From an uncultured bacterium (GTDB lineage: Bacteria > Babelota > Babeliae > Babelales > Babelaceae), in NCBI GenBank assembly GCA_963713855.1, contig OY970209.1, positions 512,001 through 576,000 on the forward strand: a stretch of DNA of 64,000 nt, given 5' to 3'. Each line of letters opens with the position of its first letter. Within the stretch, counting starts at the first letter, position 1. The position numbers and the translations under genes were made by a program. Of the stretch, positions 45,015 through 64,000 are shown one piece after another. The notes under the pieces were generated by a model. That model was not told the origin of the DNA. It searched no databases and saw only the letters and a list, made by a program, of their open reading frames with translations.

Positions 45015-45212
45015 AACAATTTACACCTAAATATATCTAATTGTAATTATTTTAATTGTAGCTTGCGCTAGACTTCAAAGTCAATAATTCACCTTGATTT
45101 TTAAGGTACTTTCCGATTTTAGAACTGCCCCAGGGGCCCACTGATGTAGAGGGCTTTTAAAATGTCGGGTAAAACGGGGTTCAAAAAAGGAAAAGGAGGA
45201 CTCTGGTGTATG

Positions 45213-46430
45213 GTCAATGACCCATGACTAAAGTCAAGGGCTTGCAAGTCAAGCCTGCTTAAGAGCTGATTGACGACACAGCTCATCAGACAGCGTATTA
45301 AGGTATACCTGTCTGATATTGATAGCAGCATTAGTATCAGCATGAGCTCTATGACCACATAAAGTACAAAGAATAGATGCTTAGAGCGATTACCTCTTGA
45401 TACATAAGAGCACTGAGAACATCTCTGGCTTGTATGACGAGGATCAACAGCTATAACGCTTATTCCTCGTTCTATTGCCTTATACTCAATAAAATCGCCC
45501 AATTGTCCAAAAGCCCAAGAATGCTGTAAATACTTCTGTTTCTTTGCTAATTTCATTCTCTCTCGTATATACTTTAGGTTTTCCATGACAAGAGTGTCAC
45601 CAGGAGAGCAAGATTGAACAAGAGCCTTACTAATAGAGTGGTTAATAGAGCGCATGACTCTCTGCTCTTTACCAGCAAGCCGTATCAGGAGACGCTTAGC
45701 CCCTTTCGTGCCTTTCTTTTGCAGAGACTGCCTTAATCTTGAATAGCGTTTTCTTATATGGAGAGCTTGCCTTCCAGAAAACTTTAGTCCTCTAGAAGTA
45801 GTAGCTAGGTTATAGATACCGCGATCTATCCCAATACTAGTACCTGTTTCTGCAACTATTGGTAGCTCTCTGTTAACTGCTATATGAATAGAAAATACTT
45901 TTCTATGCTTATCGTAGGATAAAACAGCAGCTGTTGGTTTACTTCCTGCCAATAAGGTACGTTGATACTTTCCTAGAGCCAGTTTTAATTTGTATCTACC
46001 GCCTATAAGAGCAATACTTACTTGTTCTTTTTCTTCTAAGAATGAGAATAGTCTAGTATCTAAATCTATACTCGTAGGCCTAAAGACAAAGGGCTTATAT
46101 TTCTTACACGCTTGAGCTACTCTAGCTATAGCTCTTATTGCCATGTTTGCATGCAAGTTATAGCGTTCTCTAAATTCTCTATAACAAATACGTTGTAGCT
46201 TATACTTATTCCTTATCTCATTTTCTTTTGCTATGTTGAGAATGAAGTTACAGGCAGAGGAAAAAGAAAAGAGAGTAGCTAGTATTGTATCAGCAAGCTC
46301 TTCATCAACGATAAGTTTACATTTTACGGTTTTGAGACTCTCCATTCCCTCATTCTAGCATCTTCTCTTTTCTACACAAGGGCAATTCCTCCCATGACTA
46401 AGTTAAGGGCTTCCTTGCCTTTTTCATCGT
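45213..46430 (-). mobile_element. Non-autonomous IS200/IS605-family element (IS1341-like, tnpB only)
   Basis: Related subterminal hairpins AAGCCCTTAACTTAGTCATGGG (left) and AAGCCCTTGACTTTAGTCATGGGTCATTGAC (right) on the minus strand; no tnpA; left boundary approximate. Confidence 0.85.
45249..46345 (-). CDS. tnpB: TnpB RNA-guided endonuclease, frameshift near 45370
   Basis: IGIDRG, VMENL, W.F.QL..FIEYKA, TSQRCSQC; the shifted frame continues CTLCGHRAHADTNAAINI to a stop at 45249. Confidence 0.92.
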
Positions 46431-49471: not shown

Positions 49472-49825
49472 GGTGGAGTCCCTAAAAGTGAGCTAAAGAG
49501 AAACAGGCGCCTACGCGGCTTAATAAGAGTCAGAGTATTGACTCTTATTACAGGACAATCGTCCTGCACCTGTTGCTTGTTGTTACATACTCTTATTGTG
49601 TATGAGATAGACCGGAAAATCCGGTCTATCTCATTAGGCACATATACCAGAAAGGGAACTCACTTTCTGGTATATTAAACAACCGTAAAAAATTTAAGAA
49701 GGGTGTGGGTCAAGGGTCATAAAGCCTGAGCCAGGCTTATGAGCCCTTTCATAAGAGTCAATACTATGACTCTTATGATGACGCGTAGGCGCACGCTTCA
49801 CTGATTTTTATTTGGGGACTGAACC
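49472..49825 (+). repeat. Structured MITE-like element, copy 1
   Basis: Imperfect terminal inverted repeats, six hairpins and a closing helix; homologous to 58892-59211. Confidence 0.85.
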
Positions 49826-49913
49826 TAGATTTTTAAAGGGAATGGTAAATGATTCTGCCTGCAACTCTTGAGTGTATACGCCTAAAAAAATCTGAGTGTA
49901 TTTGTATAAAATA

Positions 49914-58870: not shown

Positions 58871-58891
58871 AAAACATGGGACTTTAAGCTA

Positions 58892-59211
58892 GGAAGAGTC
58901 CAAAAAGTAAGCCAAAGAGAAATAAACGCCTACGCGTCATAAGAGTCAATACTATGACTCTTATGAGGACATTGTCCTGCACCTATTGCTTGTTTTGCGT
59001 GTTACATACTTATTGTGTATGGGATAGACCGGAAAATCCGGTCTATCCCATTAGCACATATACCAGAAAGGGAACCCCTTTCTGGTAAAATAAATCTACG
59101 TAAAAAGTTTAAGAAGGGTGTGGGTCAAGTCATAAAGCCTGGGTCAAGGGTGTCTACCCTTGCGCTCGCCGCGTAGGCGTACTTCCCTCATCTTTATGTG
59201 GGCATAGAACC
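58892..59211 (+). repeat. Structured MITE-like element, copy 2
   Basis: Homologous to 49472-49825; flanked by TA on both sides. Confidence 0.85.
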
Positions 59212-59531
59212 TAACCGAGATGCTCTTCAATGCGAGCTTTAAGATCGTCCTTAGCGATATAGCCCATGTGGCGCCAGACCACTTTCTTGTTTTTTATAAA
59301 TACAATCGTCGGCACAGAGGTGACATTAAATTGTATAGCTAAATCACGGGCCTCATCAACATTAAGCTCAGCAAAAATGTATGCGTCGCCTAATTCGTGA
59401 GCTAAAGCCTGAAAATGTGGCTTTAAAAGCATGCACGGACCACACCAAGTTGCGAAAATATCGATGATAACGGGCTTTTTTGTTTGTTCTAAGACGTTGC
59501 TAGCGTTTTGGTTACTTAACGTTGTGAGCAT
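59211..59531 (-). CDS. trxA: Thioredoxin
   Basis: FATWCGPC, SVPT. Confidence 0.93.
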   Translation of the reverse strand: MLTTLSNQNASNVLEQTKKPVIIDIFATWCGPCMLLKPHFQALAHELGDAYIFAELNVDEARDLAIQFNVTSVPTIVFIKNKKVVWRHMGYIAKDDLKARIEEHLG

Positions 59532-60479: not shown

Positions 60480-62108
60480 ATGAACATTCGTAAGGTTGCA
60501 ATTTTATGGCTGGCGAGTTTGTATCTTCCCATAGCTTGTCAACCCGAGAAAGTTGCCACACGTAGAGACGGCCCAGAAAATGAAGAAGCGGTCATTAATT
60601 TAGTTGAAGAGGGCGTTCAATTTTTGCAAACTCATACGGTCGATGAGGTATGCGTTGACTTTACGTATAATCCCCGGTGGCGCGAACCGGACACAAAGCT
60701 TTTTCTTATAGACGAGCGCAATAGAATATGGTGTATCCGGGATGAACCCAACCTTATCTGGAAAATACTTGAACACAAAGCGACTCTGCTTTTGGGTAAT
60801 ATTCCATACGCGATGCGTGAACGTGGTGTTCAAGGGGGTTGGCTTTCATTTTTGTGGAATGAACAATTAGTACGTGTTTACGTTAAAAACGTGACAAAAG
60901 GTCGACGCACCTTTACTATGGGAGCCTTTCTGTTTTCTGAAGGGCCACGCCAGCAAGTGAAAGAGCTTGTTTTTACAGCAAGAAATCTCCTAAAACAAGT
61001 GGGGTTAAATACTGCTATTGAACGAATCAGTAGCCCAACGGGTCAATTTTTGCGCGGATCCTTCTCGGTCGCTCTTTACGATTACGATGGGATATGTTTG
61101 GCAAATTCTTACAATCTGACGTGCGTAGGATCTCGAGCACAAGATCGTATTGATGATTCGGGAAAGCAAGCTTTTGAAAAGTATGTACATGTAACAAAAT
61201 CAGCTCCTTACGGATGGGTTGACAGCGTCTATAACGGTATTCGTGAGCGAATGTTCGTTGCCCGTTTTACCTATCCAAATGCACCAGCGCATAGGTTTTA
61301 TATTCTTACCTCAGGCTATTACCCACAGGTAAACGATGAGTTTGTTGTTTCAATGACCCACGAAGCTAAAGCCGTTATGGAACGCGAAGGCGCTGAAAAA
61401 GCGTTTGCTATTTTTTCTCCTGTGACCGGTCACAACCCTTTTTATAAAGCTCGTTTATATTTAGTCGTCTATGATGAAAAAGGCGTAATAAAGGCACATA
61501 GTCGATTTCCTTCTTTAGTGGGGGTAAACGCTTATTACCAAAAGGGTCAAGCGGGTTATTTCTTAACCCAGAGAATCCTTAATGCCGTTTCTAAGAAAGA
61601 CCAAGGCTGGGCATTTATTTATATTAGAAATGCTGCAGAACTTGTTTATGTGCAGCGTGTTACATTACCTGAAGGAACCTTTATCGTAACGATACAAGGC
61701 TATTCGCCGCTTGATAAAGAGCACACGTCAGCGGCTATAGTTGAATGGCTATGCGGCAGATTGACTGTTGAGCAGCCATTATTACTGTTTCACTCACTAA
61801 ACCGTGGTGCTGCTGTATGGAATCTTGGCTTCAAGGGAACAGGCCAAGCCAATATTTACAGCGACCTTTTTATTGAGATTTATGATAAGCATGATTTTTG
61901 TGTGTCAGCTGGGGCGCAGGTACATAAGATGTGGAAGAAAATGGATGACGGCTTTAAGCACAGCCTGTCTAAACTAAAGCGTGCTTCAAAGCCCGAAGGC
62001 TGGTTTTACGATAAAGTCGGCGGTTTAACGCGTAGGTACTATATAAAAAATTGCGTATTAAGCTCCGGAGACTCGTATTCCATTTTTGTTGGATACGTCT
62101 GGCCTTAG
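60480..62108 (+). CDS. Exported protein with about four single-Cache-like repeats
   Basis: Repeated helix (V..A...L...G.E.A...F), G.F..G, YD..G...AH and GW..Y units; no C-terminal TM or output domain. Confidence 0.72.
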   Translation: MNIRKVAILWLASLYLPIACQPEKVATRRDGPENEEAVINLVEEGVQFLQTHTVDEVCVDFTYNPRWREPDTKLFLIDERNRIWCIRDEPNLIWKILEHKATLLLGNIPYAMRERGVQGGWLSFLWNEQLVRVYVKNVTKGRRTFTMGAFLFSEGPRQQVKELVFTARNLLKQVGLNTAIERISSPTGQFLRGSFSVALYDYDGICLANSYNLTCVGSRAQDRIDDSGKQAFEKYVHVTKSAPYGWVDSVYNGIRERMFVARFTYPNAPAHRFYILTSGYYPQVNDEFVVSMTHEAKAVMEREGAEKAFAIFSPVTGHNPFYKARLYLVVYDEKGVIKAHSRFPSLVGVNAYYQKGQAGYFLTQRILNAVSKKDQGWAFIYIRNAAELVYVQRVTLPEGTFIVTIQGYSPLDKEHTSAAIVEWLCGRLTVEQPLLLFHSLNRGAAVWNLGFKGTGQANIYSDLFIEIYDKHDFCVSAGAQVHKMWKKMDDGFKHSLSKLKRASKPEGWFYDKVGGLTRRYYIKNCVLSSGDSYSIFVGYVWP

Positions 62109-62128
62109 GAAAAAACGGGGGATATAGC

Positions 62129-63727
62129 ATGAGGTTTTATTACTTTTTTTTCATGAGCTTACTTCTGTTAAAGAATCTGTTTCTTTTTTGTCAGACTGAA
62201 GATTTGGATGCTATACATAAAATACAAAGAAATGCTGTAGTCCTTCTTGAAAAAGCTGTATCGTTTTTAAATCGTGAAGGGCTTGACGTTGCTTGTCAAG
62301 CTTTTGCTCTTGATCCTGCGTGGAAGCATAATTCCATTGCTCTCTTCATTTTCGGTGTTGATGGCCGAGTGTATGTTGATAATGGTTACTTTGATTGTTT
62401 CTGGAGAAATCTGGGAAAGAGAGTCGATTTTTTTGGCGATCCGCTTATTCCTACAATGATTGCGCAGGGCCAAAGTGGTGGTTGGGTCACTCATCTTTTT
62501 TTAAACGACATTCGGCACTCCTATGTCAAGCTTGTTACATTGGAGGGTAAAACGTATATTGTTGGAGCAACGTTTTTTCATCAATCTCCAGTGCTCCTTT
62601 CTATCTTGATAGTTGAAGCGATGAAGCGTTTGTGGGAGCGCGATGGCGATATAAGCGCTATCCAGCTTATAAATAACCCATTTGGATCACTTGTCTATGG
62701 CAATGCGTATGGCATTGTTATGAATACAGAAGGTGTTTGTTGGGCGCATGGAAATAACGTATTGCTTGTCGGAAGGAGCTTAACCGATCCGAGCATTGTG
62801 GGTAAATCGGCGTCGGTCGCTTTTAAAAAAGTAATAGAGACCATAAAGCATCAAGATCATTTTTGGGTTGAATTTGAAGAAAACGGCCTTACAAGGGCTC
62901 TCTATTGCAGAAAATTTATGTCAGGAAAGCTCAGAAAAACGTTTATATTCATGGCGGGCTATTATAAAAACTTTACCCCCGAGCTAGTAAAATCAGTGAC
63001 CCGAAAAATAGGTGATGGACTTAAAAACAGCAAAAATGTTCATGACTATTTAAATCGCTTAAGACGAGGTGATTTTACTCACTATTTAAAAGGAGATCTA
63101 GACATCCTTGTTACCGATGCTCACGATGTCGTTCATTATTTTAGCAATAAGGCCCGGGGTGCAGCTTTTCTAGGCAAATCAATCATCAATTACGTAGACA
63201 CTTTTAAAAGGCCTTATAACAAAATGTTGTTTGCAAAATTAATGCACTCGCCCGACGCCTGGGTGTCTCGTTTTTTGCATGGCAATGTTCTTGAACGGAT
63301 ATACGGTTATAAGGTGGAGACGCCCGAGGGTGCTTATATTGTCCAAGCCCGCGGATATTATCCTTATGAGCACCGTGAAGTTGTTCAAATTATAGTGGAT
63401 GATGCCCATGATTACCTTGAAGCGAGCGGTAGTCCGAAGGCGTTCGATGCTTTAAAAGATGTATACGGGTATTTCGTTAAAGGGACTCACTCTATTTTTC
63501 TTTATGATACACACGGTATCTGCTGGGTTTCTGGTATACGGGAGTCAAATATTTGGAGCAAGAGCGATTTCATGGCTTCGATTCCTGAAGGCTTTAGCGA
63601 TGAGAAAAAAAGAGACTCTATTCGTAGGTGGTTTGTTCGCAAAATGGTAAAGCAGTTTGGTACCAAGGAGTCCTTTGTGGTTGCCTCATACTATTATCCA
63701 GAACAAGGGGAAAAGAATGAGAAATAG
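62129..63727 (+). CDS. Exported multi-Cache protein, paralog 2
   Basis: Same repeat architecture (AC.AF..DP.W, GGWV, G.CWAHG, YD..GICW). Confidence 0.72.
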   Translation: MRFYYFFFMSLLLLKNLFLFCQTEDLDAIHKIQRNAVVLLEKAVSFLNREGLDVACQAFALDPAWKHNSIALFIFGVDGRVYVDNGYFDCFWRNLGKRVDFFGDPLIPTMIAQGQSGGWVTHLFLNDIRHSYVKLVTLEGKTYIVGATFFHQSPVLLSILIVEAMKRLWERDGDISAIQLINNPFGSLVYGNAYGIVMNTEGVCWAHGNNVLLVGRSLTDPSIVGKSASVAFKKVIETIKHQDHFWVEFEENGLTRALYCRKFMSGKLRKTFIFMAGYYKNFTPELVKSVTRKIGDGLKNSKNVHDYLNRLRRGDFTHYLKGDLDILVTDAHDVVHYFSNKARGAAFLGKSIINYVDTFKRPYNKMLFAKLMHSPDAWVSRFLHGNVLERIYGYKVETPEGAYIVQARGYYPYEHREVVQIIVDDAHDYLEASGSPKAFDALKDVYGYFVKGTHSIFLYDTHGICWVSGIRESNIWSKSDFMASIPEGFSDEKKRDSIRRWFVRKMVKQFGTKESFVVASYYYPEQGEKNEK

Positions 63728-64000
63728 TGTATATGCGTTGCTCATACTTTGCTTTTATGGTACGCAATGTCATGCTCAAAAAAGCCAGATGCTTAATATT
63801 AAGCGCAAAGAAAGCTACTCCCAGAGGATCTTACGTAAAGCTGCTGACTTTTTTGAAAGAAATTCTGTTAGCGATGCTTGCCATGCATTTACCTATGATC
63901 CTTCATGGCTCAAGGGCGAAATGTTTATTATCGTGCTTGATGAGGAGGGCATGTGCTACACCTTTGGCAGTGAAAAATCACGTATATGGGAAAATTTTGC
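63717..64000 (+). CDS. Exported multi-Cache protein, paralog 3 (runs off window)
   Basis: Manual translation MRNSVYALLILCFYGTQCHA...KAADFF...DACHAFTYDPSWLKGEMFIIVLDEEG. Confidence 0.7.
   Translation, partial: MRNSVYALLILCFYGTQCHAQKSQMLNIKRKESYSQRILRKAADFFERNSVSDACHAFTYDPSWLKGEMFIIVLDEEGMCYTFGSEKSRIWENF

Follow-up and report, generated by a model that had tools for sequence, protein, structure and literature searches.

The window, as we call the whole 64,000-nt stretch of DNA that was analysed, holds two copies of a hairpin-rich repeat that occurs 21 times in its 1.52-Mb single-contig genome, as counted by BLAST and an iterated profile. Judged by its sequence, the element appears to be a new MITE/REPIN-like variant, that is, a MITE with a REPIN-like interior, and, rather than being a new RNA gene, it is likely to be selfish DNA. 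In the explanation that we prefer, to which we give about an even chance, the element is a MITE spread by an IS5/IS427-type transposase and carries a hairpin core in which template switching repairs the hairpins and flips both the loops and the core in place. If this is right, template switching would yield "compensatory" changes and an RNA-like fold in junk DNA, which calls for caution in repeat-based discovery of RNA motifs.

Copies and layout of the element

Twenty copies are full length and one is 5'-truncated. They measure about 290-370 bp, are non-coding, and lie between genes or touch gene 3' ends. The two repeats of the window had been proposed from the sequence alone as a multi-hairpin family, and both are real: all the helices quoted for them were found in place, and they fold far beyond chance, with z = -13.6 for copy 1 and z = -10.6 for copy 2 and 0/100 shuffles as good in either case. 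In 40 relatives, BLAST, a check suggested along with that proposal, found no copy. Spacers between convergent genes are enriched for copies (11/21 vs 148/849, P=3e-4), and the orientation of the core is independent of the direction of the neighbouring genes.

In each copy, arm A of ~40 bp and arm B of ~38 bp enclose a core of 213-316 bp. The arms are imperfect inverted repeats of one another, and the core is bounded on both sides by an inverted sequence of 13-17 bp, the head. Within the core the order is H1, a pyrimidine-rich linker, H2, H3, an A-rich linker, and then, optionally, H4, H5 or a 65-nt insert. Arm A lies 5' of the core in 13 copies and arm B in 8, an assignment that rests on one arm for the truncated copy and for a few copies with eroded arms. 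No A/A or B/B copy occurs among the 21. The presence of two arm orders without any such copy indicates that the core has been inverted between the heads, and the crossover between the isomers falls inside the heads.

Copy 1 (49472-49825, +) is an "A-left" isomer whose core is co-oriented with replication, and it sits between the divergent genes rpe and groES. Its arm A (49472-49507, +; ~36-40 bp), an imperfect inverted repeat of arm B, is an IS5-type end with a decayed outer CTAG. The 5' head (49508-49520, +), a mini-hairpin with a 4-bp stem and a 5-nt loop, is the inverted repeat that bounds the invertible core. It is followed by an extra 5' H5 (49521-49550, +), a near reverse-complement of the copy's own 3' H5, which was probably added by palindrome extension, a signature of template switching. 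Next come H1 and ACC (49551-49566, +), the end module common to the sister-species family described below, and the pyrimidine-rich linker (49567-49601, +), with a conservation of 0.92 vs 0.93-0.94 in the stems. H2 (49602-49634, +; 14 bp) and H3 (49645-49672, +; 11 bp) both have tips that occur in either orientation among the copies. Two optional modules, H4 (49714-49746, +) and the 3' H5 (49749-49778, +), precede the 3' head (49779-49791, -), an inverted copy of the 5' head. Arm B (49792-49825, -) has a consensus that matches an IS5/IS427-type left end at 23/24 bases, and the TAG at the outer end (49826-49828, +) would belong to a TA duplication in a CTAG target.

Copy 2 (58892-59211, +) is likewise an "A-left" isomer with its core co-oriented with replication, located between two convergent genes, an unknown ORF and a thioredoxin gene. 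It comprises CTA and arm A (58889-58926, +), a shortened 5' head with an H5 module (58927-58966, +; H5 at 58937-58966) whose loop is opposite to that of the 5' H5 in copy 1, H2 (59019-59051, +), and H3 (59061-59087, +). Its 3' end unit (59145-59179, -) is made of a hairpin (59145-59162) and a full 17-nt head (59163-59179), in a layout homologous to that of the 5' head plus H1. The thioredoxin gene (59211-59531, -) ends at the outer TAG of arm B (59180-59213, -), which serves as its stop codon.

The optional insert is a ~65-nt two-hairpin module that lies within the H1 loop of four copies (at 22.6, 431.0, 974.6 and 1197.6 kb) and occurs once alone, beside a tRNA gene (genome ~644,880-644,953, -). 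The sister species contains 11 homologues of it, almost all of which lie in the end hairpins of that family's elements, and it appears to be a second, nested mobile module.

Searches further afield returned little. A covariance-model search of 151 genomes of the phylum, with the sister species searched separately, gave one weak outside match (E=5e-4). The H2 pattern had 0 matches in metagenome contigs, head plus H1 had 0 in viral contigs and in 0/251 genomes of one other phylum, and plasmids and phages gave no match. The head pattern by itself matched 26 metagenome and 11 viral sites, nearly all by chance in GC-rich DNA. In one viral and one metagenome contig (L045, L096), two head-like motifs face each other 65-130 bases apart.

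Terminal arms and the relation to IS427-type ends

A scan of 1.59 Mb of the sister genome with the arm B profile, leaving out about 13 kb of one contig, gave as its best match the left end of an IS, identical at 23/24 bases (E=0.0036; next match 0.77). This IS is 809 bp long, flanked by TA, and carries two ORFs (DUF4096 and DDE_Tnp_1), a layout that agrees with the IS427-group traits listed in Table 2 of PMC3281130. Arm A has only a ~9-base block in common with the right end of the IS. YTAG is present at 13/20 arm A ends and at 13/20 arm B ends, and at both ends in 9/20 copies, against a background of 7% of random windows. At seven ends, the YTAG coincides with the TAG stop codon of an adjacent gene, for example ssb, or thioredoxin in copy 2. 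The sister's orthologous spacers are without the element, yet they are too diverged to provide an empty site at base resolution, and because no empty site is alignable we infer the TA duplication.

Domains of such a transposase were absent here: PF01609 (DDE_Tnp_1) and PF13340 (DUF4096) both gave 0 matches in this genome, which is 91% complete. The sister species has 6 PF13340 matches. The parent IS5/IS427-type transposase has, we infer, been lost from this genome. Family searches of the genome also gave 0 for Y1 (PF01797), IS110, RT (PF00078) and IS630 DDE_3, and no multi-copy IS was among the self-BLAST matches listed. Conservation is 87%/76% in the inner arm halves, 59%/57% in the outer halves, and ~40% in the flanks. 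That the outer halves are the most decayed is unlike a MITE maintained by its transposase.

The suggestion of a MITE family, one of two identities offered by the sequence-only reading, is borne out by the 21 non-coding copies, the IS-like end and the YTAG at the ends. With IS427-derived MITEs the element shares a multi-copy, non-coding nature, imperfect terminal inverted repeats, TA/YTAG ends, the lack of an internal transposase, and one end that is 23/24 identical to an IS427-type end. It differs from them in its interior, a separately descended hairpin unit that is armless in the sister species, is inverted in 8/21 copies and tracks fork direction, and in that its outer ends are the most decayed. 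In the preferred explanation, an ancestral REPIN-like core would have been captured between IS427-type ends, and core and ends would have been copied in trans into CTAG sites, many of them at TAG stop codons. The element would then have been stranded by loss of the IS5/IS427-type transposase and its arms eroded afterwards from the outside, and polymerase switches between the nested inverted repeats may have kept the stems perfect and inverted the spacers.

Stem changes, inverted loops and the RNA alternative

The core could also be a selected multi-copy structured RNA, transcribed from the + strand and co-oriented to avoid head-on conflicts; we consider this unlikely. In its favour, 97.6% of cells pair in a structure drawn on 13 of the 20 full copies, and 4/36 pairs are changed on both sides, as in 1/500 shuffles, a result inflated by related copies. 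An invariant long-range helix has three fixed G·T pairs on the + strand and is paired in 158/166 cells, the predicted RNA energy is lower on the + strand in 16/20 copies, and the sister species retains the architecture with altered stems. The head loop fits what we take to be a GNRA-like pentaloop pattern.

Several of these observations have a second side. In the scored stems (H1-H3 and H5, 20 copies) there are four compensatory events, all of them singletons. Mismatches on the + strand of these stems comprise 6 A·C, 1 G·T and 8 others, counts that include alignment artefacts from H1 inserts and skip hairpins with indels. The stems, at 0.93-0.94, are barely more conserved than the linkers, at 0.90-0.92. 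The long-range helix has no both-side change, is partly deleted in four copies, and competes with H1. Over 12 bases, the 5' head is not identical to the 3' head in 10/20 copies, and some of the changes keep the mini-hairpin and break the closing helix. The consensus fold was made with a split 5' alignment, and its closing-helix count and alifold output were left unused. Furthermore, no sigma-70-like promoter or terminator was found around copy 1, there is no relation to the direction of neighbouring genes, and the element is found in one genus only. REP families, too, commonly show complementary changes in their stems as well as G·T pairs, according to an extract of PMC3733652.

The case for selection on, or templated repair of, single-stranded structure had been built on three paired substitutions between the two window copies. 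Two of them stand. The H2 change, an A-T to G-C double change, is real and private to copy 2 (1/19 scored copies), and the H5 change is real and confined to copy 1, where it goes alongside an inverted loop. The third, G-C vs A-T in the closing helix, is not a paired substitution: the position lies at the arm/head junction, is G·T in 14/19 copies, and each of the two copies carries one independent single change. The hairpin TTTTGCGT/ACGTAAAA, claimed as common to both copies, exists in copy 2 only and pairs in 110/153 cells over the 20 copies. The claim that G-T pairs favour folding of the + strand fared in between, since the three fixed G·T pairs and the energies in 16/20 copies agree with it and the derived single changes, 1 G·T vs 6 A·C on the + strand, do not. 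The + strand is most often the template for the lagging strand, so that folding or deamination of the DNA could be an alternative source of this strand asymmetry.

What points to another process is the state of the hairpin tips. Exact reverse-complement tips occur between copies, 7 v 2 in H2 and 6 v 1 and 1 v 1 in H3. In the accessible extracts of PMC8604942 and PMC8794818, the footprint of template switching is described as homogenisation of the arms together with inversion of the spacer, and PMC8794818 presents such loop inversions as rare in rRNA, which speaks against an RNA whose loops invert freely. With template switching, a single process could account for the repaired stems, the flipped loops and, by extrapolation, the inverted core; it is an extrapolation because the spacer inversions in the yeast study among these are 2-5 substitutions long and the core inversion spans 230-310 bp. 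The compensatory pattern fits template switching at replication better than selection on an RNA fold. Of the two processes named in the sequence-only reading, templated repair of single-stranded structure is therefore supported, by the reverse-complement tips among other evidence; the other process, with a + strand RNA fold under selection, is not favoured, given that loops and core invert, that the compensatory changes of the long stems are singletons, that single changes give 1 G·T vs 6 A·C, and that the 5' head changes in ways that disrupt the closing helix.

Core orientation, the sister-species family and known systems

By GC skew, replication starts near 396 kb and ends near 1,197 kb. The core lies along the leading strand in 19/21 copies (P=2.2e-4), or in 17/19 without the two copies near skew inflexions, whereas the arms do so in 13/21 (P=0.38); genes on the leading strand number 655/1,239. 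If the preferred explanation holds, fixed arms and a flipping core together would make an internal control for replication-polarity effects that is absent from ordinary IS surveys. The isomers, with the core flipped relative to the arms in 8/21 copies, do not form clades in the core tree: they require 5 changes, a number as low in 133/500 shuffles, on a poorly resolved tree in which 1/17 branches is starred and that branch mixes 3 A with 1 B. As the isomers are not clades, either the flip was repeated or cores were exchanged. Core and arm distances are uncorrelated (Mantel r=0.01 and 0.23), where the arm distances include ~10 flank bases.

Of all the steps in the preferred explanation, what causes the fork bias is the least certain. 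Flipping by template switching is symmetrical in principle, so that the 19/21 bias is left unexplained by template switching alone. In-place flipping would produce the bias only if its rate differed between the two starting orientations.

An invertible switch driven by a recombinase, with the single tyrosine or the split serine recombinase acting between the heads, would suit the clean two-isomer pattern and the crossover within the heads, and the genome has one tyrosine and one serine recombinase ORF. We nevertheless regard it as very improbable. Typical recombinase sites are longer than the 13-17-bp heads, sorting by replichore is not expected of such a switch, the serine recombinase is in pieces, and no promoter was found in copy 1.

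The core has relatives of its own. The 17-base head is multi-copy in 3/261 genomes of the phylum, and in the sister species 114 heads form 49 clusters that are without IS5 arms and have ragged, modular ends. A covariance model of the 5' module gave 61 matches in the sister species (E<=0.1, best 6.7e-11), and in the two sister alignments shown, the head, H1, linker and hairpin align with changed stems. The sister family also has stem covariation and inverted tips (13 v 2, 7 v 1). Its fork bias is weaker and in the same direction, with 29/43 matches (one spurious; P=0.03), or 27/43 by local skew (P=0.13). Covariation in the head stem extends across both species, and position 3 of the head loop is a purine in 137/137 heads, the search pattern having fixed only positions 1, 2 and 5. 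Intact cores in 20/21 copies, together with the armless sister family, suggest that the core has its own mobility or function.

In two loci of another genome (L069 and L084, genome G052), the head occurs ahead of a hairpin module in 3-7 tandem repeats, separated by spacers of a constant 8 or 14 bases, in an iteron- or telomere-like arrangement. In a Clostridia MAG, multi-copy hairpin repeats of modular build lie between genes and contain the H1 module without the head (L014, L016, L024-L026, L030, L038); one of its repeat clusters lies just downstream of dnaA-dnaN, and no Y1 gene was found in that MAG.

The same data lend themselves to a different account, which we hold possible, if on the low side, in which the core is a true mobile single-strand unit that an HUH-type or other enzyme pastes into the lagging-strand template. 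The core would then have entered or overwritten older IS5-derived MITEs either way round, and the isomers would be insertion products and not flips. That the fork bias is confined to the core, that core and arm distances are uncorrelated, and that the 49 sister head clusters are armless and ragged-ended with a weaker bias the same way all accord with it. So do the covarying head stem and the purine in 137/137 heads, which are like a recognition signal, and the ~65-nt module inserted in end hairpins of both species. There is precedent in IS608/IS200, whose orientation bias is ascribed to use of the lagging template in extracts of PMC5027513 and PMC3971601. Set against this, this genome has yielded no empty A+B MITE, no armless core and no Y1 transposase; no head lies near the 7 Y1 loci inspected in relatives, no head-flanked enzyme gene is found among the 49 sister clusters, and the small loop inversions are left unexplained and need template switching anyway. 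Carried one step further, the head-bounded core may represent an undescribed class of single-strand mobile hairpin elements with a putative enzyme, defined by the covarying 4-bp mini-hairpin with its G-C-R-N-A loop plus the end hairpin, and forming, inside fixed IS5 ends, a recombinase-free invertible segment set by fork direction. This we think rather doubtful. If true, core orientation would naturally record the polarity of replication at 21 sites on the chromosome, and the head would be a handle for finding a new mobilising enzyme.

Comparison with known systems bears on the preferred reading of a MITE with a REPIN-like interior. The family had been put forward as undescribed, and this still holds: at gathering score, Rfam gave only a tRNA in the window and nothing for the copies or for one sister element, and no description was found in the open-access literature searched, supplementary repeat catalogues aside. 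As portrayed in the extract of PMC3733652, REPINs resemble the element in their inverted pairing of short units, each a head plus a hairpin, with a structured spacer in between, in lying between genes with enrichment between convergent ones, and in having complementary stem changes. The element differs from them in a spacer of more than 200 bp with several long hairpins and in the IS5-type arms outside. It also differs from the REPs of that extract in its GTAG, a sequence placed 3' of the hairpin, within the loop of the head, and variable at two positions. A tagged REP was rejected as an identity because the unpaired GTAG or CGTC at the hairpin foot that the extract requires is absent, and a RAYT-linked REP because PF01797 is 0 in the genome and heads are 0 at the 7 Y1 loci inspected out of 11 from relatives. 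SRM repeats, in an extract of PMC11893778, are likewise intergenic DNA hairpin repeats, and the element's H4 begins with a similar short tag; the SRM pattern published there was found in 0/20 cores. The only GIY-YIG match of the genome is an ORF of 434 aa, not a small single-domain Ssn nuclease. A group II intron or retron-derived RNA was set aside because the genome has no reverse transcriptase (PF00078, 0).

The sequence-only reading had also likened the repeats loosely to HEARO/IscB RNA, for a few short words in a similar order, which it allowed could be chance. The element does share with HEARO a length of about 300 nt and a multi-copy nature. The resemblance failed: RF02033, with a gathering score of 83 bits, matched no copy even at E up to 1-10 (E<=10 for both window copies), and no enzyme gene lies within any of the 21 copies. 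The only match to RF02033 in the genome, at 22.9 bits, is at the 3' end of a TnpB gene (window 45213-45313), outside any copy.

This TnpB (window 45119-46345, -) combines OrfB_IS605 with a Cas12f1-like TNB and has IS200/IS605-type end hairpins, and the genome has no TnpA; its TNB match ends at 38 of 60 positions, and its C-terminus looks frameshifted. A second TnpB lies at 1386 kb of the genome. The IS200/IS605 group (IS608) resembles the element in its replication-relative orientation bias and hairpin-rich ends. The differences are that the end hairpins of the element stand on opposite strands as an inverted pair, that there is no TnpA(Y1), and that both TnpB loci of this genome have ends unrelated to the element.

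Elsewhere in the genome, a very large, expanded family of repeat proteins extends over ~785-1445 kb, with up to ~200 self-BLAST overlaps per locus. Within the window, positions 60480-64000 hold at least three tandem paralogous ORFs with internal repeats (542 aa, 558 aa, and one running past the window end), and these internal repeats presumably resemble Cache-type sensor domains.
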